From Candidatus Krumholzibacteriia bacterium (lineage in GTDB: Bacteria; Krumholzibacteriota; Krumholzibacteriia; WVZY01), in assembly GCA_036478295.1 (NCBI GenBank), contig JAZGDW010000034.1, positions 1 to 15,355 on the forward strand: DNA of 15,355 nucleotides, in the 5' to 3' direction. The translations under genes and the position numbers were made by a program. Shown here piece by piece: positions 146 to 13,450 of this stretch. Numbering within the stretch: position 1 is the first letter of the stretch; each line of letters begins with the position of its first letter. The notes below the pieces were generated by a model. It ran no database searches and had not been told where the DNA came from. It saw nothing but the letters and a program-made list of their open reading frames with translations.

Positions 146-1135
146 ATGATGCAAAGAAGAAAGACGATCACTGGTATCGCAGTCGTCGCCGGGGTGATTA
201 CTGTAGCGCTCATAGCCTATTGGGCGATTGGTCCCGCGGGGAATTCACCGGCGGGATCGGAGGAGGCGCAACACGGGGCTGAAGACAAAGGGCACGACGA
301 GCACGGCGAAGAGGCTGTGGTGCAGCTAAGCGCAGCGGAAATGGAGGAGTTCGGCATTGAAGTCGGGAGAGCCGAAGGGGGCGTGCTGCACATCCGCACG
401 ACGCTACCTGGTGAAGTTGTCTCCAACCAAGATAACGTCGCCCATGTCGTGCCGAGATTCCCAGGCTTGGTGACTGACGTGCGAAAACAGTTGGGCGACC
501 ACGTCGAGAAGGGCGAAGTGCTGGCGATCATCGAGAGTAACGAGAGCCTGACCGGATACGAGGTGAAATCCCTCATCGCCGGAACGATTACAGAGAAGCA
601 CATCACGCTCGGCGAGGTGTTAATCGAGGGCGACGAAGCGTACGTGATTGCAGACTTGAGCACGGTGTGGGTCAACCTGAGCGTGTACCAAGAGGATTTG
701 AACCTCGTGCGGAAGGGACAGAAAGTAGTCATATCCGCGGGACACGGCATTCCTGACGTCACAGCGAAGATTTACTACGTCGGGCCGGTGGTGGATGAAC
801 ACACGCGGACGGGACTCGCTCGGGTGGTGCTGTCCAACGAAAAGAGGCTCTGGCGTCCAGGCCTCTTCGTTACCGCGCGACTCCTCGTTTCCGAGGAAAC
901 GGTGCCGCTGCTCGTTCCCGAGACGGCCCTACAGACGATCGATGATAAAACGTGCGTCTTCATCGAAACGGAAAAGGGCTTTGAACCCCAACCCGTGGGG
1001 CTCGGCCGCCGCAACGACACCCATGTTGAGATCGTGTCGGGCCTCACGGTGGGGCAGCGCTATGTCACGCTCGGTGGTTTTACGCTTAAAGCCGAGCTCT
1101 CAAAAAGCGCCTTCGGCGAAGGACATGGACACTAA
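146..1135 (+). CDS. czcB: Heavy-metal RND efflux periplasmic adaptor (CzcB/CusB family)
   Basis: N-terminal TM anchor, His/Glu-rich linker, lipoyl-type GDHVEKGEVLA, IADLSTVWV, WRPGLFV, His-containing tail (GEGHGH). RBS GGAGG before ATG 146. Confidence 0.92.
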   Translation: MMQRRKTITGIAVVAGVITVALIAYWAIGPAGNSPAGSEEAQHGAEDKGHDEHGEEAVVQLSAAEMEEFGIEVGRAEGGVLHIRTTLPGEVVSNQDNVAHVVPRFPGLVTDVRKQLGDHVEKGEVLAIIESNESLTGYEVKSLIAGTITEKHITLGEVLIEGDEAYVIADLSTVWVNLSVYQEDLNLVRKGQKVVISAGHGIPDVTAKIYYVGPVVDEHTRTGLARVVLSNEKRLWRPGLFVTARLLVSEETVPLLVPETALQTIDDKTCVFIETEKGFEPQPVGLGRRNDTHVEIVSGLTVGQRYVTLGGFTLKAELSKSAFGEGHGH

Positions 1136-1153
1136 CGAGGAGGGAAGCTGATT

Positions 1154-4100
1154 ATGCAAAAACTCGTCAACTTCGTCCTCGCCAACCGCCTGTTGGTGCT
1201 CGTCATGGGCGTCGTCGTCATCCTCGCGGGCTATTTGAGCTACCGCCAGTTGCCGGTGGATGCGTTTCCGGATGTGGCGCCCGTCCTGGTTCAGGTATTC
1301 ACCGAGACCGAAGGGCTCGCGCCAGAAGAAGTTGAGAAGTACGTGACCTACCCGATCGAGGTCTCGATGAACGGACTTCCGGCGGTCAGTCAGATCCGGT
1401 CGGTCTCTAACTTCGGTCTCTCCGTCGTCAACGTCTACTTCGAAGACGGCACAGACATCTATTTTGCCCGGCAACTCGTGAACGAGCGGCTCCAGGAGGC
1501 ACGCGAGGAAATCCCCGAAGGCTTCGGCGAACCGATCATGGGGCCCATATCGACGGGGATGGGACTCATCCTCTTCTACTACCTGGAAGACGAGACAGGC
1601 CAGTACAGTCTTGAAGAACTTCGGACCATCCAGGACTGGCTCATCAAGTTCCACCTCCAGACGGTGCCTGGGGTCACCGAAGTACTCGGCATCGGTGGCT
1701 ACGAGAAACAGTTTCACGTGGTCATCAATCCAAATGCGTTGCTTCAGTACGAAGTAACCATCAACGAAGTCGTTGAAAACATCCGGGCGAACAATCTCAA
1801 CGTCGGTGCCCAGTTCATCGAGAAGAACGCTGAGGAGTACATCGTCCGGTCGGTGGGCCTCGCGTCGACGATCGAGGATCTCGAAAACATCATCATCAAG
1901 ACAGAAGATGGAACACCGGTCTATCTAAAGCAACTGGCAGCGGTGCGTGTGGGCGGCGCCGTCCGACGCGGCGTACAGACTCGTAATGGTATCGGCGAGG
2001 TCATCTCCGGCATGGTAGTGAAATTATTCGGCACGAATTCATCAACAGTGATCGCCAGCGTCGAAGAGAAAATGGAAGAGATCAACGCAATCCTGCCCGA
2101 AGGCATCAAGATTGTGCCCTACTACGAGCAGAAGACGCTCGTTGAAGCGTGTATCGAAACGGTGAGCCACGCCCTTCTCGAGGGCATTGTTCTTGTAATT
2201 GTCATTCTGCTCGTCTTCCTCGGGGGGGTCCGGCCGAGTCTCGTTGTGGCGCTCGCCATCCCATTCTCCGTGCTGTTCGCCATGCTTGGAATGAAGTACT
2301 TCGGGATCTCCGCCAACCTCATGTCCTTCGGCGGGCTTGCGATTGCGATCGGCATGATGGTTGACGGCAGTGTGGTGATCGTCGAGAACGTCGATCGCAT
2401 GTTGCGAGATTCCCGGAATAACGAGCCCGTACTTCGCGTGGTAGCGCGGGCCTGCACCGAAGTCGTGCGGCCGATCACGTTCGCCATCATGATCATCATC
2501 ATTGTCTTCTTCCCCTTGTTCACACTGCAGGGCGTTGAGGGGAAGACGTTCCGTCCGCTCGCGTACACGGTCGCGCTGGCGATGACGGGCTCGCTGATCT
2601 TTGGTGTGTTTCTCACGCCGGTGTTGGCCTCATTCCTCATGCGAAGACCCAAGCGAGTGGGCAGTGGCGCCCACGGCGAAATATGGGTCCTGCGAGTGCT
2701 CCTGAGAATCTATCGACCGGTCATTACATTCCTCGTGCGGAGGCGGTTTTTGGCCGTTGGACTGGTCTTGGTCATGATCGTTGTGGGTATCACGATATTC
2801 CCGCGACTCGGGTCCGAGTTCACGCCTGAGCTGCAGGAGGGGACGATGGTACTGCGCCTGACGATGGCCCCGTCCATTTCACTTAAGGAGAGTACGAAGA
2901 CAACCCTCCTCGTTGAACGGCGATTGATGAAGATCCCGGAGATCACCGGCGTCGTCTCGCGCATCGGCCGGGGTGAGGTGGGTGCGCACACCGATCCGAT
3001 CAACAACGCGGAGATGTACATCTTGCTCAAGCCAAGAGAGGAATGGCGAGCCCGAACCCAGGAAGAGCTCCAAGAAGTCATCCGCGAAGAGCTGGGGGAT
3101 GTACCAGGGGTGTTGACGAACTTCACGCAGCCCATTCGTATGACAGTGGACGAGCTCCTCGAGGGGATCCGGGCAGAGTTGGCAATCAAACTCTTCGGCG
3201 ACGATCTCGACGTCTTGAAGCGCAAGGCGGACGAGATAGCGGCTGTTGTACGGCGCGTACGTGGGGCAGCCGATGTCCAGGTTGACCAGGTCAGCGGCAC
3301 GCCCCAGCTGCTCATTCAGGTGGATCGGTACGCGATTGCCAGGTACGGCATAAACGTCTCCGACGTCCAACAGGTTGTACGCGCCGCGGTCGGCGGTGAG
3401 GTGGCAAGCCAGGTCTTCGAAGGGATTCGTCGCTTCGACATCCTCGCTCGCTTCGAAGCTGAATACCGAAGTGACGTGAGTGCCATCAAGAAGCTGCTCG
3501 TTCAAACGCCGGAAGGCGCAAATGTGCCGCTACACGAGCTCGCTCGGATAGAGGAAGTAACCGGTCCTCGGCAGATCACCCGCGAGAACAACCAGAGATT
3601 CATTACGATCCAGTGCAACGTCACCGGTCGCGATATCGGTTCGTTTGTTGCGGAAGGGAAGGAGGCCATTAAGGCACGGGTGCAGCTGCCAGCCGGGTAC
3701 CTCGCCACGTGGGGTGGCCAGTTTAGACTGCAGCAGGAGGCCAACCGGCGGCTGGCGGTCGTGATCCCGATCACGCTCATGATCGTTTTCTTCTTCCTGT
3801 TCTTGAGCTTCAAGTCGATGAAGAACACGTTACTCATCTTTCTCAACATCCCGTTGGCGCTCGTCGGCGGTGTCGTTGGGCTCTGGGCGACAGGCCAGAA
3901 CCTCTCAGTGCCCGCATCGGTGGGGTTCATTGCCCTCTTCGGCATCGCGCTCCTGAACGGAATCGTGCTGGTAACGTACCTCAACCAACTCATCCAGGAA
4001 GGACTGCCGATGGACGACGCATCGGTGCAGGGGGCATGCCTCAGACTGCGCCCCGTCCTCATGACCGCGTTTGCAGCGGCCCTCGGGATGATCCCGCTAC

Positions 4101-4249
4101 TCTTCGCAACCGGTATCGGTAGTGAGGTCCAACGGCCGTTGGCAACGGTTGTAACGTCCGGGCTCGTCACGTCGACGGCTCTGACACTTCTAGTCGTACC
4201 AGCGATCTACAAGTGGTTTGCGGTCAAGCCCGGGGACGTCGAACTCTAG
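1154..4249 (+). CDS. czcA: CusA/CzcA-family heavy-metal efflux RND transporter
   Basis: 1031 aa with LPVDAFPDV, APEEVEKYVTYPIE, GGLAIAIGMMVDGSVVIVEN, RLRPVLMT and GSEVQRPLATVV motifs typical of HME-RND. Metal specificity cannot be read from the sequence. Confidence 0.96.
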   Translation: MQKLVNFVLANRLLVLVMGVVVILAGYLSYRQLPVDAFPDVAPVLVQVFTETEGLAPEEVEKYVTYPIEVSMNGLPAVSQIRSVSNFGLSVVNVYFEDGTDIYFARQLVNERLQEAREEIPEGFGEPIMGPISTGMGLILFYYLEDETGQYSLEELRTIQDWLIKFHLQTVPGVTEVLGIGGYEKQFHVVINPNALLQYEVTINEVVENIRANNLNVGAQFIEKNAEEYIVRSVGLASTIEDLENIIIKTEDGTPVYLKQLAAVRVGGAVRRGVQTRNGIGEVISGMVVKLFGTNSSTVIASVEEKMEEINAILPEGIKIVPYYEQKTLVEACIETVSHALLEGIVLVIVILLVFLGGVRPSLVVALAIPFSVLFAMLGMKYFGISANLMSFGGLAIAIGMMVDGSVVIVENVDRMLRDSRNNEPVLRVVARACTEVVRPITFAIMIIIIVFFPLFTLQGVEGKTFRPLAYTVALAMTGSLIFGVFLTPVLASFLMRRPKRVGSGAHGEIWVLRVLLRIYRPVITFLVRRRFLAVGLVLVMIVVGITIFPRLGSEFTPELQEGTMVLRLTMAPSISLKESTKTTLLVERRLMKIPEITGVVSRIGRGEVGAHTDPINNAEMYILLKPREEWRARTQEELQEVIREELGDVPGVLTNFTQPIRMTVDELLEGIRAELAIKLFGDDLDVLKRKADEIAAVVRRVRGAADVQVDQVSGTPQLLIQVDRYAIARYGINVSDVQQVVRAAVGGEVASQVFEGIRRFDILARFEAEYRSDVSAIKKLLVQTPEGANVPLHELARIEEVTGPRQITRENNQRFITIQCNVTGRDIGSFVAEGKEAIKARVQLPAGYLATWGGQFRLQQEANRRLAVVIPITLMIVFFFLFLSFKSMKNTLLIFLNIPLALVGGVVGLWATGQNLSVPASVGFIALFGIALLNGIVLVTYLNQLIQEGLPMDDASVQGACLRLRPVLMTAFAAALGMIPLLFATGIGSEVQRPLATVVTSGLVTSTALTLLVVPAIYKWFAVKPGDVEL

Positions 4250-4601: not shown

Positions 4602-4654
4602 ATCAGGTCTTTCAGTGGCGGTCGGAATATGCTAAGTGTAGGAAAGACAACGAC

Positions 4655-4693
4655 GCCGGAGTGGCGGAATGGTAGACGCAGCGGACTTAAAAT
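4655..4693 (+). repeat. tRNA-Leu 5'-half duplicate (att site)
   Basis: GCCGGAGTGGCGGAATGGTAGACGCAGCGGACTTAAAAT is identical to 10247-10285. Identity stops one base after the anticodon loop. Confidence 0.95.
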
Positions 4694-4823
4694 GCGAAAA
4701 CGGCCCGGAATCAACTTCGTTGTCACACAACGAGATAGCCGATAGCTCTTTGAAAATATTTATGTTACACCGCTAATCAGCTTGCGGGACTTTGTTCTAC
4801 TTTGTGGGGTTTTGGCCAGAGCA

Positions 4824-5759: not shown

Positions 5760-7020
5760 CCCTCACTAATATAGGTGATTCGGCGCCGATTTGATCCGGA
5801 CATGTGCGACTGGCCGCCCTAGATTTGCCCATATGGTGGAAGATCAGGGGTATAAGCGGGGGACGAGACGCGGGGCCGGTTAATCTGCGAGCACCAATCC
5901 ATCTGCTCCCGATCGGATCAGGCAACTGGGAACTACTCAAGCAGCCTTGCGATAATACCGATGATGAAGCCCTCCGACCATCGGCTCAGCGACAACGGTG
6001 CCAGCGCCGGGCAGCTCGACTTCGCGCGGAACCGGTGAGTCCTTCCCGAGTCCGAGATGGGTTCTCGCTTCGTGGTAGTACTGGAAGTACTCCTTCAGGA
6101 TCCGTCGCAGGTGTCGGTGGTTGAGCACGATCACATGGTCGAGGCACTCACGCCGCGCCGATCCAATCACCCGCTCGACGTAGCCGTTCTGCCACGGGGA
6201 CTTGCGTGCAGTAACGACCTGTTCGATTCCGATTGACCGCAACGTATCAACGACCTTCTCGCCGTAGATTTTGTCGCGGTCCCGAAGCAGAAACCGTGAG
6301 GCGGTGTCGAACGGAAAGGCTTGGACGATCTGCCGGCTTGTCCATTCCGCAGTGGGTGAGTCGGTCACGTTGAAGTGGAGGACGCGACGCCGATCGAGTG
6401 AGAGGACAACGAAGACGTAGAGCGTCTTGAACGTAAGGGTTGGGACGGTGAAGAAGTCGACCGCTACGATCTCGGAGAAGTGGTTGTGGATAAACGAACG
6501 CCACGTCGGTGACGGTGGACGGCGCCGCTTGATTATGTACTTGGCGACCGTCGCTTCGCTCACATCGATGCCGAGCTTGAGCAACTCTCCGTGAATCCTG
6601 GGCGCGCCCCAGAGCGGGTTTTCCCGAGATATTCGTCGAATCAGGCATCGGACCTCCACCGGCACAACCGGTCGGCCGCGTCCTCGACACTTCCACCGCC
6701 AGTAGAGTCGCCACCCTTTGCGGTGCCACGCGACGACGGTCTTAGGCTGAACGATGGCCAGTGATTCACGCCAGTCCGGCCAGAGTCGAGAGAGGACGAT
6801 CCACAGAACGCGGTCTCGGTTGGTCAGGTGCCGCGGTTTCCGGGTTCGCTGGAGAACATCGAGTTGATGGCGAAGTGCAAGGTTCTCCAGGGCTAGGGAA
6901 CGGCGGGATTTGATGCTGGAAAAGATGGCGCGCAGGATGAGTAGTAGCATTGAGCCATGCTATACTCTGGGCGGCGTAAGTGCAAATGGGGCAACGGCGA
7001 TGAATTATTTGGTAGGCACA
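5737..7020 (-). mobile_element. Insertion sequence, 1284 bp, IS481/IS3-superfamily-like (TGT...ACA ends)
   Basis: Terminal inverted repeats TGTCCCTACCAAATAATCCATAGCC and TGTGCCTACCAAATAATTCATCGCC (22/25 match) enclose one DDE ORF. No target-site duplication visible. Confidence 0.88.
5937..6950 (-). CDS. DDE transposase with integrase-core (rve) domain
   Basis: LALENLALRHQL, ENPLWGAPRIHGELLKLG (HTH), AVDFFTV (D), FLLRDRD (D), SPWQNGYVER (E). Confidence 0.93.
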   Translation of the reverse strand: MLLLILRAIFSSIKSRRSLALENLALRHQLDVLQRTRKPRHLTNRDRVLWIVLSRLWPDWRESLAIVQPKTVVAWHRKGWRLYWRWKCRGRGRPVVPVEVRCLIRRISRENPLWGAPRIHGELLKLGIDVSEATVAKYIIKRRRPPSPTWRSFIHNHFSEIVAVDFFTVPTLTFKTLYVFVVLSLDRRRVLHFNVTDSPTAEWTSRQIVQAFPFDTASRFLLRDRDKIYGEKVVDTLRSIGIEQVVTARKSPWQNGYVERVIGSARRECLDHVIVLNHRHLRRILKEYFQYYHEARTHLGLGKDSPVPREVELPGAGTVVAEPMVGGLHHRYYRKAA

Positions 7021-7073
7021 GTCACTTCTCCGACGGTGTTTTATGAACGCGGTTTTTGGCAGGAGGAAGGGAG

Positions 7074-7110
7074 AAAAGGGGCGCCGCCGGTCGGGAGGCG
7101 ACACCCCTTT
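7074..7110 (-). terminator. Intrinsic terminator of the minus-strand rSAM/peptide transcript
   Basis: Minus strand reads AAAGGGGTGTCGCC-TCCCGACC-GGCGGCGCCCCTTTT. The stem pairs fully (two G-U) only on the minus strand and is followed by a pyrimidine run. It starts 17 nt after the peptide stop. Confidence 0.75.
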
Positions 7111-7127
7111 CCTCGGTGAAACACGAG

Positions 7128-7265
7128 TTACGCGCATTTGCCGCGCTGCTTGCAATTTAGCCGGCAGAACGGCGGCATAGTGCCCGTTTTAGTCGGCGGT
7201 GCAGCTAAAGCACGCTGCTTCTTCCCAGGGAGCTTGCGCTCCTTTGGGACCTTGCGAATGTGCAT
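7128..7265 (-). CDS. 45-aa basic peptide with three C-terminal Cys; putative RiPP precursor (not in ORF track)
   Basis: AAGGAGG RBS overlaps the rSAM stop codon. ATG 7265 encodes MHIRKVPKERKLPGKKQRALAAPPTKTGTMPPFCRLNCKQRGKCA-TAA, followed by a terminator. Confidence 0.8.
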   Translation of the reverse strand: MHIRKVPKERKLPGKKQRALAAPPTKTGTMPPFCRLNCKQRGKCA

Positions 7266-7277
7266 AGCAAGCCTCCT

Positions 7278-8459
7278 TTACGATTCGACGCCAAAGATGG
7301 CGCACAGGACAGGGTCTTTACCGCAGATGTGGCTGTGTTCTTGAGCACGAAAACGACAACCACCACGGCATTCTTCCAGGAAACGGCAATCTTGGCATTC
7401 CGTGAGCATTTCCTGGGTGACGCCTTTCCGCTGTACCCAGGCGCTGCGGAGATCAACCTCACGAATATTGCCAATTAGCATCTCCTCCGTATGGAGAAAC
7501 GGGCAAGGGTATATTTCGCCGTTTGGAAACACAGAGCAGATATGCGAACCACAGGTGAAGTTGCTCTTCGACAAATGCGGCCCCTCGCCGTAGCTATACT
7601 CCAACATAATCTCAGCGGCTTCCTGAATGGGAACCGCATGTTCTGAATTTTCGCGCCACCGGCCCAGCTCAGACGGGGCATTTATGATCCAGTCGGTGAT
7701 TTCAAACGACTCCCAAAGTTTAGCGAGCTCAGGGAAGTCATTGCGGTTTTCTCCGTGCACCATCGTAGCAATCGCAACTGGAATCCCGGCAGCTCGGAGC
7801 GCCTTGATACCACTGAGCGAGCGTTTGTACGATCCGCGGCCGCGGAGGAAGTCGTGCCCCCGCTCCGTGCCGTCTATGCTAACTTGTGCCAAGTCGACAT
7901 TAAGACAGCGCGCTACGTCGGGGGTTACCTCTGTACCATTGGTAAGAAGCTCGAAGCGTAGATCGTAGTCTGTGAAGTAGTTATTAAGTTCCCAGAAATT
8001 GGGATGCGTGAGCGGTTCTCCACCAGATAGCAGCACCGTGAGGCCCTGCATGTCAACCATTTGATCCATGAGCTCAAGAATCGACGTTAGTGGCAGATCT
8101 TGGTCCACAGCTGGAGCCGTATAGCAGTGCTTGCACTTGAGGTTGCAGCGAAATGTGAGGTGGAGAAGCAGATAGCGAAGTGATGGCAACGGGGGAGCCA
8201 CTGACGGATCAACGTTGAAAGTCCTGCCTCTCTGGCCGTCAGCCGGCACGAGAATGCCCTCATCCAAACAGAACTTAAGGAATGTTGCGGCTCGAGGGTC
8301 CTGGGTGTAACCGGGTACGCTTGGTTGGTTGAGGAACGCGAGCGCCTCCTCGTCAATCTCGTAAAGCTCATCTGTCCGGCCTCGGTAAACAACGGGCGTC
8401 TCAAGGCGTTTGAGCGAGCAATCTTCGGACAACTGCAAAAGGGCACCAGGTTGCTTCAA
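7278..8459 (-). CDS. Radical SAM/SPASM-domain protein with N-terminal RRE/PqqD-like region; putative peptide maturase
   Basis: CNLKCKHC (CxxxCxxC), SGGEP, and SPASM cysteines CGSHICSVFPNGEIYPC...CQDCRFLEECRGGC...DPVLC. Start placed at TTG 8459 after GGAAGGAGG (393 aa) rather than 8561. Confidence 0.92.
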   Translation of the reverse strand: MKQPGALLQLSEDCSLKRLETPVVYRGRTDELYEIDEEALAFLNQPSVPGYTQDPRAATFLKFCLDEGILVPADGQRGRTFNVDPSVAPPLPSLRYLLLHLTFRCNLKCKHCYTAPAVDQDLPLTSILELMDQMVDMQGLTVLLSGGEPLTHPNFWELNNYFTDYDLRFELLTNGTEVTPDVARCLNVDLAQVSIDGTERGHDFLRGRGSYKRSLSGIKALRAAGIPVAIATMVHGENRNDFPELAKLWESFEITDWIINAPSELGRWRENSEHAVPIQEAAEIMLEYSYGEGPHLSKSNFTCGSHICSVFPNGEIYPCPFLHTEEMLIGNIREVDLRSAWVQRKGVTQEMLTECQDCRFLEECRGGCRFRAQEHSHICGKDPVLCAIFGVES

Positions 8460-8562
8460 CGCTAGGCCTCCTTCCCAGCAGACGTAGCCGTTATTGGCAT
8501 GGCACATTTGCGTCGATCCATCTACGCAACCTTCGTGATTAGTAAAGACACTAAGGTGCAAC

Positions 8563-9801
8563 TCACAACGTGTAGTTGAGCCCTAAAGTATATGCCCAGT
8601 CCCAATCCGACTTGTTAGTTGGCACCTTTCGCTTTGAGTAACGAACGCCCGCGAACAGGCCGAACGATCCCACCATGTGGTTCAGAGCCCCACCCACGAT
8701 TAAATCATCAAACGGGCTATCCGATACCTTAAACCCGACCACCGCGCTCGGCCAGCCGAGATGAACTAGACGGGTCCTATCGCTGCGGGGCAACTTGGGG
8801 CGGGACAACAGGTAGAAGTTGAATAAAATATATGGTTCGACCTCTTTGCTCGAGACGCCTTGCTCACGGTGCTTGCCATCTACGAGCGTGAAAGCCAAAC
8901 CGAAGCTTGCTCTGACTCGGGATGGACTGTAGTTCCCGAATGTGGCGTAAGCTCGGCTATCTTTCAGCGCTGCTCTGACACGATAGATCGTATTCTCGCG
9001 TACCGAGATTTTTGCCATACCGAAGTAGAGCGCTTTGTCGCTTGTACCAATAAGTTGCATGGACAACTTGGCGTCTTGGTCTTCCAGTTCCTTTTCCTTG
9101 TCGGCCGTTGGCTTGACGTCCGCGAAAAGAGATACGATGGCCGCAATCACGGAAAGTTCCCCTATCCCGCGGCGGTACTCCAACGCCTCCGAGCGAACGG
9201 ATGGTGTGATAGCTGTAAGCTTCTGCACCGTTTTCTTGCTGAATTCTTCATCGGTCGGCTTTTCAGTCGTACGGGTAATCGTGGTGGTTGAGTCAAACTT
9301 TTCCTCGACGGAAGTCGAGTCGTTCACTCGTGTCCTCTGAAACTTCTGTACCGTTTCTTGTACCGTTTTAGTGATGGTTCCTTTATCAGCCGGTCTTAAA
9401 GTGGTACTGTCAATCGTGGTGGTTGATTCGAACTCGTGCTCGAGGAGACTCGGGTCGTCTGTAAATACCATTATCCATACGTATCTCGCGTCCCACAGGT
9501 CCTCCACAATCTTACCATTTTGAACGAGAGCAGCTTTAATGTTATGTGTCTCTGTGCCATTCTTTTTAAAATAGACCACGAGATCGACGAGATTCTTATC
9601 ATAACCGGGCTTGAAAAACATGTCTGGTATTCCGATCAAACTGTCGTTATTGTCGTTGTCTAACAAGGCAAACAACTCCACGCACCTCAATGAATCGAGC
9701 GGGTATTGCCGGTTTCCCATGGGGTGTTCTCGTGCGTGACATAGGTCAAACGAAACCGCCGCTAACCCGGTTACTATAATTAGACACATCGCTCGTGCCA
9801 T
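8563..9801 (-). CDS. Exported hypothetical protein with Thr-rich repeats and C-terminal outer-membrane beta-barrel-like region
   Basis: ATG 9801 after GAGGAG, signal peptide MARAMCLIIVTGLAAVSFDLCHA, amphipathic strands ending WDWAYTLGLNYTL. 412 aa. Confidence 0.7.
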   Translation of the reverse strand: MARAMCLIIVTGLAAVSFDLCHAREHPMGNRQYPLDSLRCVELFALLDNDNNDSLIGIPDMFFKPGYDKNLVDLVVYFKKNGTETHNIKAALVQNGKIVEDLWDARYVWIMVFTDDPSLLEHEFESTTTIDSTTLRPADKGTITKTVQETVQKFQRTRVNDSTSVEEKFDSTTTITRTTEKPTDEEFSKKTVQKLTAITPSVRSEALEYRRGIGELSVIAAIVSLFADVKPTADKEKELEDQDAKLSMQLIGTSDKALYFGMAKISVRENTIYRVRAALKDSRAYATFGNYSPSRVRASFGLAFTLVDGKHREQGVSSKEVEPYILFNFYLLSRPKLPRSDRTRLVHLGWPSAVVGFKVSDSPFDDLIVGGALNHMVGSFGLFAGVRYSKRKVPTNKSDWDWAYTLGLNYTL

Positions 9802-9940
9802 GATTATCTCCTCGTCGCGGGGAGAAGATGTCGCAGGCCGTTCTATTAACACGCACAACATTTGGGTAGAAGGGGAGAGCGGAGTGCGATTCTGGTGTAA
9901 TATGTTAACCCGTACGACAAGCTGAGGGTAATTTAGTTAG

Positions 9941-10246: not shown

Positions 10247-10335
10247 GCCGGAGTGGCGGAATGGTAGACGCAGCGGACTTAAAATCCGCTGGGGTTATAA
10301 ACCCCGTGCCGGTTCGAGTCCGGCCTCCGGCACCA
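10247..10335 (+). tRNA. tRNA-Leu (anticodon UAA)
   Basis: Acceptor stem GCCGGAG/CTCCGGC, discriminator A and encoded CCA, anticodon arm GCGGA-CTTAAAA-TCCGC, long variable arm GGGGTT-ATA-AACCCC, T arm GCCGG-TTCGAGT-CCGGC. Confidence 0.98.
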
Positions 10336-10772: not shown

Positions 10773-13065
10773 ATGAGGCGAATACGAAGGGTTTTTGACC
10801 GGAACCCGGCCTGCCCGCCGTCCCGTGGGGGCAGGGTGAGGGTTACGGCAATATCTTTGATGACAATGATGCTGATCGCCATTGTAGGGTGCGGAGGGGA
10901 CGACCCACCACCCGTTGCCGTGGACACCAAAGCGCCGACGGTGACATCGATGTCGCCCGCGGCTGGGGCCATGAACGTTTCGTTGAATACGACCATCAGC
11001 GCGACCTTTTCGGAGGCGGTACGCGCGTCGACCGTCAATGCCACGACCTTCACGGTCGGTGGTGTGTTGGGTACGGTCGTGCTCAACGGAAAAGTGGCGA
11101 CCTTCACGCCCTCGGCTGCCCTGGCCGAGAGCACGCCCTACACGGTGACGATAACGACCGGGGTGAAGGACATCGCGGGCAACGCGCTGGCTGCCGATTT
11201 CGTGTGGTCGTTTACGACCCTAGGAACCGCGCCTGTGGTGGCGTCGGTCTCACCCTTAAATGGGGCCATGGGTGTTTCGTTGACGAGCACTGTCAGTGCA
11301 ACCTTTTCGGAAGCGGTCGATCCCGCGACGGTGACGGCGACGACATTTACGGTGAGCGGCGTGACCGGCACTATCAGTGTCAACGGTGCGACGGCGACCT
11401 TCACGCCCTCGGCCGCCCTGGCTGAGAGCACGCCCTACACGGCGACCGTCACCACCGGCATAACCGATCTTGCCGGCAACGCGCTGGCTGCCGATTTCGT
11501 GTGGTCGTTTACGACTGGCTCGGCGCCCATTGCCAACGCCGGACCGGATCAGGACGTGACCCTGGGTGTGAGCATCGTCCTGGACGGCTCGGCGAGCCAA
11601 GGCGATTTCCAGACCCGCACTTGGGCCCAGGTCTCGGGACCAACGGTCGTGCTGACCAACCCGACCAGCGCGACTCCAACGATTCCGAATCCGCCGAACG
11701 AAGTTACGACGATGGAGTTCGATCTGACGCTTACCTTCGGCGGCCAAGAGAGTCGGGACCGCGTCGTGATCTTTATCCTCGAAGACGCGGACAACGCGCT
11801 GTTTGTGAGCAGGACAGGTAGCGACGCGAACGCCGGCACGCGCCAGTCCCCGTTCGCAACGGTGCAGAAGGCCATCGATGTGTCGAACGCCGTCGGAGGC
11901 GGGGCGGACGTCTACGCTACTGACGGCGTTTTCTCGGAAACGATTACACTGCGCGACAACGTGAGCATCTACGGTGGCTTCCACCGGATCACCGGGCTCC
12001 GTGATATCCAGCTGAACAAGACCATCATCAACGGGGGGCCGCAGGCAGTCACGGGCTCCTCAGCCAATAATTTGACCCTCGACGGGCTGGAAATCCTGAG
12101 TGCCGCCGGCCACGGCCGGTGGGAGCTCGATTGTGATCAGCCTCGAAAGTAGCACCGGCGTTGTCATCTCGCGTAACACCCTGTTTGCCGGCATTGGTAG
12201 CAACGGCTCGGACGGTTGCACTTCGCCGTTAGGTTTTTGCCCCAAACCTGGGGCCGATGGCGACGACGGTCGCACCGCCGTTGCAACCCCGCCCGGTTTG
12301 GGGGGACCCGGCGGGGGGGGGGGGACTGCAGGACATGACGGCGGTAAAGGTGGAACAGGTGGTGCTGGTGTGGGGTCAGACGGCTTCCCGGGAGACGGAC
12401 CCTTAGGTGGGCTCGGCGGAAGGGCACAGCTTTTTAACGGCTCAAGGGGCGGCACGGGCGGCAACGGCACCAACGGCGGCAATGGCCTCGGAGGATTGGC
12501 GTTCGGCTCTACAGGCGGGGCCGGTTACAACCCGAGTAATGGGGCTGACGGGGGCGACGGCACTAGCGGCAGTGGTGGCGGTGGCGGTGGTGCCGGCGCC
12601 GGCGCCAGCAACTTCATTGTTTTTGGTGGTGGTGGTGGTGGTGGTGGTGAAGGCGGCGGTGTTGGCAAGTACGGCCGCGGCGGTTTCGGTGGTGGCGGCG
12701 CTTTCGGCATCCTGCTGACCGACGGAAGCAGCGCGACCATTACCGATAATACCATCACCACGGGTGAAGGTGGTGACGGGGGAAGCGGCGGTGAAGCCAG
12801 CATCGGTGGCATCGGTGGCACCGGGGGAAACGGCGCGAATGCTGGCCACGGCACCGGTGGCAACGGTGGCGACGGCGGTATCGGTGGCATCGGCGGTCAC
12901 GGCGGCAGCGGCGGCGGTGGACCGTCGATTGGTATCGTCGAGAGTGTAACAAGCAGCTCCACTCGGACGCTCAACGTGTTCACGCTGGGAACCGCCGGCC
13001 TCGGGGGGACCGGCCCGGGCAATCCGGGCGCCGCTGGAGAACGAGTGAACTACTGGAAAGAGTAG
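10773..13065 (+). pseudogene. Surface lipoprotein (2x Ig-like Big_5, PKD-like, DUF1565/beta-helix-like, Gly-rich PGRS-like tail) split by a frameshift near 12109
   Basis: AGGAGG RBS and lipobox IAIVGC, two ATFSEAV...DLAGNALAADFVWSFTT domains, APIANAGPDQ, GSDANAGTRQSPFATVQKAI. ORFs 10773-12152 and 12100-13065 join as ...ILSAA/ATAGGSSIVI. Could be a sequencing error. Confidence 0.75.
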
Positions 13066-13380: not shown

Positions 13381-13450
13381 CGGACTTAAAATCCGCTGGG
13401 GTTATAAACCCCGTGCCGGTTCAAGTCCGGCCTCCGGCACCATTTATCTC
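13381..13450 (+). repeat. tRNA-Leu 3'-half duplicate (att site)
   Basis: CGGACTTAAAATCCGC...CTCCGGCACCATTTATCTC matches 10274-10343 except A13423 vs G10316 in the T loop. Confidence 0.96.

Follow-up and report, generated by a model that had tools for sequence, protein, structure and literature searches.

A candidate two-gene RiPP locus from an unnamed family that pairs an RRE-containing radical SAM-SPASM enzyme with a short C-K-x4-C peptide

The stretch of DNA analyzed here (15,355 nucleotides, hereafter called the window) carries on its minus strand a gene for a radical SAM enzyme that is followed directly by a gene for a 45-amino-acid peptide. Our findings support the view that this pair belongs to an unnamed peptide-modifying family of oxygen-avoiding bacteria and archaea. 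The small ORF is a real, conserved gene that travels with its enzyme subfamily, and the peptide is very likely the cognate partner of the enzyme family. The locus is best explained as a RiPP unit of two genes whose family is unnamed. By analogy with related enzymes, it is rather probable that the peptide is the substrate and that it acquires one or two thioether cross-links from its cysteines.

The enzyme gene (7278..8459, minus strand) has an intact frame that runs from a TTG codon at 8459 to a TAA at 7280-7278 and encodes a putative peptide maturase of 393 amino acids, identical to protein P0003 of our collection. A ribosome-binding site, AAGGAGG (8467..8473, minus strand), lies 7 nt before the TTG. 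A second AAGGAGG (7272..7278, minus strand) shares one base with the enzyme stop codon, an arrangement of the kind that couples translation, and a 6-nt spacer separates it from the ATG at 7265 that opens the peptide gene (7128..7265, minus strand). This frame of 45 codons closes with a TAA ending at 7128, and so a UGA-readthrough variant that was considered is unneeded. Both the overlap of the enzyme stop with a perfect ribosome-binding site and the peptide sequence are present in the DNA as the sequence-only reading had described them. Downstream lies an 18-bp hairpin with an 8-nt loop (7071..7114, minus strand), and the 96-nt stretch containing it folds at -40.1 kcal/mol (z -4.68, equaled by 0 of 200 shuffles). 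The hairpin had been called a strand-specific terminator. Its preference for the minus strand is borne out (-40.1 versus -36.6 kcal/mol on the plus strand) because three G-U pairs become mismatches on the opposite strand. Its role as a terminator is no more than plausible, given that the U-tract is short (UUUU, within the extended stem) and that a consensus terminator scan does not list it.

Several observations establish the 45-codon ORF as a gene. It is called as a protein and has ten homologues, and the peptide gene occupies the same position in loci L162, L163, and L165. In the genome, AGGAGG and a start codon adjoin the stop at 12 of 2377 long-ORF ends, four of which lead into an ORF of at most 60 amino acids. 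When the window peptide is left out of the profile made from the ten homologous peptides, it still ranks first among the 57,648 small ORFs of the genome (E 0.0063, 18.6 bits; next best 8.2 bits), a rank that is not fully independent because the window peptide was part of the profile that recovered these long-type homologues. As had been supposed, the peptide matches no known precursor family in NCBIfam or Pfam, and 11 long-type peptides yield only unrelated, chance-level matches there. A search with a two-row alignment returned only the window peptide itself, and phmmer over 1.84 billion representatives returned the peptide and one 3085-amino-acid protein. The latter was dropped as a repeat match, its 18 stretches all aligning with the Pro/Thr part.

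The association between peptide and enzyme extends across two clades. Among close-clade archaeal loci with downstream DNA, a long-type peptide directly follows the enzyme in three of three (L162, L163, L165); a further locus, L166, ends at the gene end and stands outside this count. Protein P0014 may be a fusion of enzyme and peptide. The sister enzyme clade, from Nitrospirota, Desulfobacterota, Methanoperedens, and Archaeoglobus, carries a 20-amino-acid form, and short Cys peptides comparable to that of the window are thus found beside homologues in both clades, where the earlier reading had proposed to look for them. Within a subfamily defined by the enzyme N-domain profile rather than by the peptide, the motif occurs within ~600 nt in 38 of the 48 loci with full flanks, compared to 0 of 57 other radical SAM loci; the motif was formulated after these peptides had been seen, and the loci are kin, so that the counts overstate independence. 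One of the 10 loci that lack a nearby motif has it 3.5 kb away, and four of five genomes checked have it elsewhere (16 of 20 matches in the genome-wide pattern search were not family peptides and were dropped). In a quick tree of 60 hand-chosen rows, in which about 53 short-type loci are represented by 30, the type of peptide tracks the clade of the enzyme (SH-aLRT 96 for long, 95 for short, and 99 for both together), and the two clades differ at active-site positions 170, 260, and 320 in a manner that matches their core types.

The features common to the long and short peptides are confined to a leader motif, two cysteines, and a lysine. The leader motif (residues 1-9, I3-x-K5-V6; 7239..7265, minus strand) is predicted to pair with the RRE as an additional strand. 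The core, C38-K39-x-x-G42-x-C44 (7134..7154, minus strand), belongs to a segment whose P, C, K, G, and C are invariant in 12 of 12 long-type peptides, and short-type peptides keep C-K-x4-C. Core types are C-K-C-K-x-S-C and C-K-S-x-G-K-C. The register common to the two forms rests on the motif and on the sister enzymes, because mutual sequence matches are non-significant (the short profile gives E 430-990 against the long peptides and E 3.1 against the window peptide). The short form is under purifying selection, with core entropies of 0.40, 0.23, and 1.19 bits at the three codon positions and both Cys codons in use among 52 distinct DNAs. The C-x3-C-x5-C segment and the Pro/Thr linker that had been emphasized do exist in the window copy, but neither Cys34 nor the linker is a family feature: all 11 of the other long-type peptides have Ile at position 34, and the linker corresponds to 13-14 inserted residues that are private to this copy. 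Relative to the same 11 relatives, the window core carries three substitutions (I to C34, F to N37, and S to Q40). Its SCIFF-like length, once taken as a clue, is a coincidence, since family peptides range from 20 to 84 amino acids.

The N-terminal domain of the enzyme (residues ~6-74; 8238..8444, minus strand), when modeled alone, shows an RRE fold, in agreement with the earlier suggestion. The structural matches of the model are led by RREs: TigE (Z 8.0, rmsd 3.1, 81 aligned), lasso B1 (Z 7.4, 2.5, 67), TbiB1 (Z 7.3), the PbtF RRE (Z 7.0), and PqqD (Z 6.4). A Foldseek search likewise placed TbiB1, lasso B1, and TigE at the top, none reaching E 0.001. Sequence-level support for the RRE is weak, with PF05402 found in 3 of 63 members (best E 0.0059) and only chance matches between the N-domain profile and PDB sequences. 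Pfam Radical_SAM and SPASM both score above cut-off (24.1 versus 21.5 for PF13186, SPASM). The CxxxCxxC motif for the SAM cluster (C105, C109, C112; 8124..8147, minus strand) is Cys in 119 of 119 aligned homologues. In the SPASM domain (7302..7553, minus strand), six cysteines are kept in 119 of 119 homologues and C386 in 117, which reproduces the 3+4 pattern of CteB. We infer that C303, C319, and C368 provide the three ligands of the first auxiliary cluster and that C355, C358, C364, and C386 hold the second; C303 and C319 align with C344 and C362 of CteB (numbering from PMC10177961). C308 was rejected as a ligand, as it is replaced by A, M, L, or G in 39 of 119 homologues and aligns with a Leu of CteB.

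Foldseek matches for the whole enzyme are best with CteB, SkfB, and SuiB. No NCBIfam maturase model reached its cut-off among the best 25 of 74 families, where the highest scores (MftC 118 bits, AhbD 117, ScmE 115, NirJ 113) all fall far below it. At the six catalytic-site positions described in PMC10288494, the enzyme reads Y-S-L-S-P-F, compared to Y-T-F-S-Q-L in SkfB and F-F-T-S-H-Q in CteB, as read from our alignments. Judged by eye, this set appears nearer to the sactisynthase SkfB than to the ranthisynthase CteB, with which it is identical at one position of six. The mismatch lowers the case for membership in the CteB group, not the case for thioether chemistry.

Co-folding of enzyme and peptide gave a score of 0.89, compared to 0.01 for the best control. 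In a calibration that extended to neither user alignments nor ligands, 116 of 157 solved complexes attained this mark, as did 2 of 215 mismatched pairs. At least 67% of contacts are shared between runs, and the partner pLDDT is 44 or higher. Peptide residues 2-6 contact enzyme residues 31-36 at 0.4-0.9 A expected error, and the confident interface also includes peptide residues 38-39 and enzyme residues 303 and 367-368, whereas the peptide's own fold is uncertain (pLDDT 44-53). In the predicted complex the leader sits against the RRE, and Cys38 lies next to the first auxiliary cluster. The prediction may owe something to structures already solved for RRE-leader pairs (CteB, SuiB, lasso B1).

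Locus conservation, the RRE fold, and the co-fold support the original proposal that the peptide is the enzyme's substrate, and they are consistent with the following mechanism. The I-x-K-V leader would pair with the RRE and allow Cys38 to reach the first auxiliary cluster, which, having three protein ligands, could bind a core Cys thiolate as in CteB, PapB, and Tte1186. A substrate Cys or Sec bound to this cluster is reported for PapB and Tte1186 in PMC10177961. The 5'-deoxyadenosyl radical would then take hydrogen from a nearby core residue, and one or two S-C thioether rings, each costing 2 Da, might form within C-K-x4-C. The likeliest acceptors would be the alpha carbon of Gly42, linked from Cys38 as a sactionine, and the invariant Lys39, linked from Cys44. 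We lean toward a sactionine, itself a tentative assignment, over a ranthionine, which we regard as somewhat unlikely. The absence of a protease or ABC exporter nearby stood up to Pfam and NCBIfam scans of the window's long ORFs, and no exporter or protease recurs among neighbors. The lack of dedicated genes for cleavage and export makes it probable that the product is retained inside the cell or depends on housekeeping processing.

Other neighbors of the window locus do not appear to be parts of the system. An RND efflux pair lies 3 kb away on the opposite strand, and neither it nor an IS3-like transposase recurs among neighbors; an upstream 432-amino-acid protein has no tblastn match in the fetched loci besides the window's own. 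An Rfam scan returned tRNA only. In the sister clade, 63 of 85 subfamily loci encode a small Cys-rich partner protein of no named family, and four have it fused to the enzyme. Searches did not find it in the window genome, nor in three long-type genomes, each of them incomplete. Archaeal long-type loci carry a GNAT gene, likewise not found in the window genome. Two Thermodesulfovibrio genomes hold the complete three-gene set in scattered form, a pattern that speaks for a physiological function more than for a toxin cluster that can be discarded. The sister-clade neighbors hint weakly at a part in how anaerobes cope with oxygen or metal stress.

Alternative readings of the peptide must be weighed against thioether formation. 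The enzyme might instead act on the cysteines by oxidative decarboxylation of the terminal Cys, by forming a thio-oxazole-like heterocycle, or by oxidizing a Cys carbon, and the product might be a small cofactor used inside the cell, in the manner of mycofactocin or PQQ. The top score of MftC, the lack of a recurring exporter or protease, and the scattering of the Thermodesulfovibrio genes in the manner of housekeeping genes all fit this reading, as does the fact that the last Cys is also the final residue in 48 of 52 short peptides. However, 11 of 12 long-type peptides extend one or two residues past that Cys, which argues against obligate decarboxylation at the C terminus, and model scores are far below cut-off (MftC 118/265, SbtM 73.5/350). 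Moreover, PMC10288494 gives StsB as a case in which full-length MftC similarity hides a sactisynthase. We regard these alternative Cys reactions as unlikely. A cyclophane joining the aromatic residue to the Arg or Lys of P-[F/W]-x-R, as in triceptides, is the least probable proposal. Long-type peptides have W or F in 10 of 12 and R or K in 12 of 12 at the motif positions, but Leu replaces the aromatic in the other two, the 52 short-type peptides have no conserved aromatic even though their enzymes form the sister clade, and no cyclophane maturase model reaches cut-off among the best 25 of 74 NCBIfam families. It is also quite improbable that the peptide binds without covalent change, as a metal or Fe-S carrier or as a regulator whose Cys sits at the open iron site. 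The true substrate would then be another molecule, possibly the Cys-rich partner in the sister clade, whose frequency and fusions are in keeping with this idea. A co-fold cannot separate substrate from ligand, and the cluster-bound Cys in the CteB structure is, according to PMC10177961, not the cross-linking one. Yet enzyme and peptide are retained in the genomes where the partner was not found, and a leader and core combined with an RRE is the standard precursor layout according to PMC10288494.

A separate matter, independent of the chemistry, is whether the window copy is a decaying, horizontally acquired remnant of a real family that is no longer processed. The three private core substitutions and the insertion point this way, as do the failure to find the GNAT gene in this genome, the position of the locus between tRNA-Leu fragments beside an IS, and its lower GC3 (0.60 versus 0.75-0.84). 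Neither 60 relatives nor 207 other genomes of the phylum yielded the enzyme. Searches elsewhere found it in 0 of 401, 0 of 301, and 0 of 151 genomes in the phyla of G063, G065, and G062, respectively, and in 0 of 5 further genomes, and a metagenome scan gave no close-clade locus among the matches listed. Against decay, both frames are intact, the insertion is in frame, and both ribosome-binding sites and the hairpin are kept, as are the invariant peptide residues (I3, E9, P32, C38, K39, G42, C44) and the invariant residues of the enzyme. The differences may instead mark a subtype; the nearest enzyme, P0004 (53%), was compared as protein alone. The window copy may be drifting, and we doubt that the locus is a dead remnant.

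The family offers several points of interest. It is a candidate RiPP family missed by curated HMMs because its 20-amino-acid short form lies below usual gene-calling lengths, and to our knowledge a peptide of 20 residues is among the shortest precursors. The lineages that carry it (sulfate reducers and the ANME and DPANN archaea) have yielded almost no characterized RiPP chemistry. Both the enzyme and its substrate are small enough to be coexpressed, and the 20-mer is easily synthesized, so the chemistry is directly testable. The two core types, with matching differences at enzyme positions 170, 260, and 320, provide a comparison for how radical SAM enzymes choose the acceptor carbon. We also speculate, with considerable doubt, that the locus represents one branch of an ancient system that spans domains and belongs to strict anaerobes (sulfate reducers, Nitrospirota, ANME, Archaeoglobus, Aenigmatarchaeota). 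The system would make neither an antibiotic nor a signal, and its enzyme would turn a 20-residue peptide into a unit constrained at C-K-x4-C. The sister clade would combine this unit with the Cys-rich partner, perhaps in a shared metal or Fe-S site or as a redox cofactor that derives from the peptide and serves under oxygen or metal stress; the long-type clade would have lost the partner and the middle Cys together, and its archaeal members would have gained the GNAT gene. Literature searches with the motif found no paper, as did a taxon search, and further searches showed nothing on this family at the level of titles and abstract openings. The supplements of PMC10288494 and PMC9062424 lack the motif, containing only two unrelated CKCK rows.

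Several known systems resemble the locus in part. Mycofactocin (MftA-MftB-MftC) and the NirJ-, AhbD-, and ScmE-like SPASM enzymes give the highest HMM scores, but MftC (TIGR03962) stays below its cut-off of 265, the RRE is fused in the window enzyme, and the window peptide has no C-terminal Val-Tyr, which MftC needs according to PMC10288494. CrpA-CrpC of Methanococcus voltae (TIGR04463) is similar in that an RRE-radical SAM-SPASM enzyme of an anaerobic archaeon acts on a Cys-rich neighbor. Its substrate, as described in PMC13692751, is a large repeat protein with C-x-x-Q/D motifs, unlike the window peptide, and the best 25 of 74 families for the window enzyme do not include TIGR04463. CrpABC was rejected as the same system. 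The SCIFF/ranthipeptide systems (CteA-CteB, Tte1186, PapA-PapB; PDB 5WGG/5WHY) share the enzyme layout and a small adjoining Cys peptide, and CteB, a top Foldseek match, shares the open site on its first auxiliary cluster. These enzymes are only 19-20% identical to the window enzyme, which scores 72.7 against the PapB cut-off of 340 and differs from CteB at five of six catalytic-site positions. A SCIFF identity was rejected, as the peptide has three cysteines, two of them conserved, rather than six, lacks CX3D and six-Cys patterns, and the maturase model is not among the best 25 of 74 families. The sactisynthases SkfB (PDB 6EFN), AlbA, and StsB also contain RREs, and their models too are below cut-off (StsB 95.9/625 and AlbA 58.8/850 for the window enzyme; SkfB 57.2/300 for a sister-clade enzyme). 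The window enzyme has a full SPASM domain, compared to the twitch domain of SkfB (PMC10114670), and the StsA core, CxCxCx4GxGxG, is unlike C-K-x4-C. Nevertheless, SkfB ties for the best Foldseek match and has similar active-site positions by eye, and StsA, too, has a short core of Cys and Gly and is paired with an enzyme that resembles MftC (PMC10288494).

The 393-aa enzyme, a radical SAM-SPASM protein with an N-terminal leader-binding fold (RRE), is encoded on the minus strand by an intact ORF (TTG at 8459 to TAA at 7278) preceded by an AAGGAGG (8473-8467). As the sequence-only reading had claimed, its stop overlaps a perfect AAGGAGG (7278-7272, minus), by one base, and a 6-nt spacer leads to the 45-codon peptide ORF (7265-7128, minus). 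Across the whole genome, 12 of 2377 long-ORF ends combine AGGAGG with a start codon at the stop, and four of them open ORFs of at most 60 aa. The strand-specific terminator said to close the pair survives in part: an 18-bp hairpin (7114-7071, minus) follows the peptide ORF, with none of 200 shuffles folding as well (z -4.68), and is more favourable on the minus than on the plus strand, but its U-tract is short and it is not among the matches of the terminator scan.

Comparable peptides, predicted to lie beside homologues of the enzyme, were found. Its nearest relatives (proteins P0004-P0015) are 45-53% identical, and such a close enzyme occurs in 4 of 371 genomes of one phylum, that of an Aenigmatarchaeota record. 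At the archaeal loci L162, L163 and L165, the enzyme is followed directly by a peptide ending P-[WF]-I-[RK]-[LK]-F-C-K-S-x-G-x-C (long type) and then by a GNAT gene; the sequence of locus L166 stops at the enzyme end. Protein P0014 carries a long-type precursor fused to the enzyme C-terminus, which may be natural or an assembly slip, and its close relative P0015 stops before such a peptide. A peptide search with five rows, the window peptide included, returned ten homologues, three being own or near-identical peptides of loci already in the query. For four homologous peptides, the longest contig is as long as that of a close enzyme (P0130/P0005, P0132/P0011, P0129/P0123 and P0135/P0009), from which we infer that each pair is co-located.

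The C-terminal C-x3-C-x5-C segment of the earlier reading is only partly a family trait. C38 and C44 are invariant across 12 long-type peptides, as are P32, K39 and G42, but C34 is unique to the window peptide; so are N37 and Q40, and the other 11 have Ile, Phe and Ser at the three positions. From leader Ile to core Cys, the window peptide spans 35 residues versus 19-22 in the others. Among 57,648 small ORFs of the genome, the window peptide is the top match (E 0.0063) of a profile built without it, the profile's homologues having been found with a query that contained it. The GNAT acetyltransferase lies 36-57 nt after the peptide at all three archaeal loci (L162:1755-2240, L163:777-1340, L165:675-1169); it is possibly a tailoring or self-protection enzyme, and gave no tblastn match in the window genome.

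Enzymes 35-42% identical to that of the window, from Nitrospirota, Desulfobacterota, Methanoperedens, Archaeoglobus and Actinomycetota records, are accompanied upstream or downstream by a 20-21-aa peptide, M-x-I-[KR]-K-[VI]-x-K-x4-5-C-K-C-K-x-S-C (short type). A quick tree of 60 chosen rows places the long-type enzymes in one clade (SH-aLRT 96) and the short-type enzymes in its sister (95), with a support of 99 for the two together. Their peptides have a leader and a C-K-x4-C register in common, and show no significant sequence match to each other. With the subfamily set by an enzyme N-domain profile, the peptide motif occurs in 38 of 48 subfamily loci having 600 nt on both sides versus 0 of 57 other radical SAM loci, and in 50/83 versus 2/81 among all 164 loci, counts that are overstated because the loci are related by descent. 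The two motif-bearing outsiders, L094 and L115, appear to be subfamily genes truncated at the 5' end. Among the ten full-flank misses, one has the peptide at a distance of 3.5 kb, a check of five genomes located it elsewhere in four of them, and four are metagenome contigs outside that check. The short-type core varies mainly at third codon positions across 52 distinct DNAs (entropy 0.40, 0.23, 1.19).

A small Cys-rich partner protein, built of a 55-aa unit that contains C-x2/3-C-x-F and C-G/A and is often duplicated to about 115 aa, is present at 63 of the 85 subfamily loci and at none outside (for example L003:4808-4969 and L096:3614-3970, also L187, L188 and others). It is fused in frame to the enzyme at L002, L013, L029 and L111, and neither Pfam nor NCBIfam has a name for it. 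In two Thermodesulfovibrio genomes, the genes for enzyme, peptide and partner are all present, each at a site of its own. The partner was not found in the window genome or in three long-type genomes, which are incomplete. Divergent members L034 (a Promethearchaeia record), L127 and L121 also have it; the peptide motif was not found near them, nor elsewhere in the L034 genome. The other neighbours are recurrent only inside particular lineages; they are rubrerythrin/ferritin-like proteins, 2-oxoacid oxidoreductase, Fe-SOD, catalase-peroxidase, NifU/NifS, ZIP, USP, an ATP-grasp, a cupin-like gene and an additional radical SAM. These point weakly to an oxygen/metal-stress role. Desulfobacterales-like short-type loci (L025, L027, L028, L030, L031, L047, L056) have an extra radical SAM/SPASM gene, often with an unnamed cupin-like gene, and the sub-clade L082, L087-L089 and L094 has an ATP-grasp gene after the peptide; further tailoring is a possible role for all three.

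In the window, the pair was likely acquired horizontally. The enzyme was not found in 60 relatives or in 207 other genomes of the phylum, and the pair has a GC3 of 0.60 where three other genes of the window have 0.75-0.84. The two genes sit between a tRNA-Leu 5' fragment (4633-4696, plus) and an intact tRNA-Leu(TAA) (10247-10335, plus), adjoining an IS3/IS481-like transposase (rve_3; 5937-6950, minus) that starts about 120 nt past the hairpin and scores below both NCBIfam cut-offs. The 5' fragment is 5.6 kb upstream of the intact copy, and a 70-bp 3' fragment (13381-13450, plus) is 3.1 kb downstream, which suggests two islands integrated either side of one tRNA-Leu. Similar 5' pieces lie on contigs C163, C114, C44 and C223. 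A 432-aa protein (8563-9861, minus) starts with what by eye resembles a signal peptide, is rich in Thr in the middle and is beta-barrel-like at the C-terminus; it has no Pfam/NCBIfam family, the Atlas clusters that resemble it (at 0.94) are unnamed, and it was not found beside the enzyme's relatives. A membrane-fusion protein of the HlyD type, His-rich at its ends, and a transporter of the AcrB family (146-4249, plus) probably form a heavy-metal efflux pair of the CzcBA type. At 10773-13065 (plus), a Big_5/PKD/DUF1565 lipoprotein ORF is overlapped by a Gly-rich ORF read in a different frame (12100-13065); the two look like a single surface protein split by a frameshift, with paralogues on contigs C24 and C203.

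Pfam places Radical_SAM and SPASM above cut-off in the enzyme, which stays below cut-off for each of the 25 best-scoring NCBIfam families out of 74 (top scores/cut-offs: MftC 118/265, AhbD 117/500, ScmE 115/400). An AlphaFold model (pLDDT 82.6) best matches CteB, SkfB and SuiB. The N-domain, modelled alone from a 63-row alignment, is closest to TigE (Z 8.0, rmsd 3.1, 81 aligned), followed by lasso B1 proteins (7.4 and 7.3), the PbtF RRE (7.0) and PqqD (6.4); some non-RiPP winged-helix domains are interspersed among these best matches. RREs head both match lists, at middling Z and with no Foldseek match below E 0.001, in agreement with the RRE-like N-terminus originally proposed. C303, C319, C355, C358, C364 and C368 are invariant in 119 homologues, as is H306, and C386 is kept in 117; C308 is kept in only 80. 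Aligned to CteB, C303 and C319 match C344 and C362, and C308 falls opposite a Leu.

Co-folding of enzyme, peptide, three 4Fe-4S clusters and SAM scored 0.89 versus 0.01 for the best control, passing a mark that 116 of 157 solved complexes attain, as do 2 of 215 mismatched pairs, counts only roughly valid for this case; similarity to known structures of RREs with bound leaders may account for this score. Separate runs shared at least 67% of contacts, and partner-chain pLDDT was at least 44. Peptide residues 2-6 pair with RRE strand 31-36 and helix 56-67, and the confident interface includes residues 38-39 of the peptide and 303 and 367-368 of the enzyme. The leader is thus predicted to bind the RRE, with Cys38 near the first auxiliary cluster; that a peptide so placed is a ligand and not a substrate is improbable. 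We favour, with modest confidence, Cys-to-carbon thioether rings, for which Gly42 and Lys39 would be candidate acceptors. Some other Cys chemistry or a cofactor is a minor contender, and a cyclophane is very improbable. The comparisons establish a conserved leader and core, the co-occurrence, a real gene and an intact enzyme; decay of the window copy, a question separate from the chemistry, is unlikely.

No Pfam/NCBIfam family fits the peptides, in line with the earlier impression that no recognised precursor family matched, and the family is outside every curated family tested. The motifs were not found in the literature searched, including the searched supplements of PMC10288494 and PMC9062424; subscription-only radical SAM-RiPP atlases, unsearched supplements and bioRxiv supplements could list it. 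The system in PMC13692751 (CrpA-CrpC) differs from the window pair, and PMC10114670, PMC12144867 and PMC9062424 give general background only. This RRE-radical SAM/SPASM peptide family is real and apparently undescribed so far. CteB, PapB and Tte1186 have a 3+4 Cys pattern with an open iron site on the first auxiliary cluster, according to PMC10177961, and the conserved cysteines of the window enzyme fit that same pattern. At the six catalytic-site positions set out in PMC10288494, the enzyme reads Y-S-L-S-P-F, nearer SkfB than CteB in alignments, and we therefore lean slightly to a sactionine. In mode of working, the family resembles sacti/ranthipeptide systems, with a chemistry that we infer.
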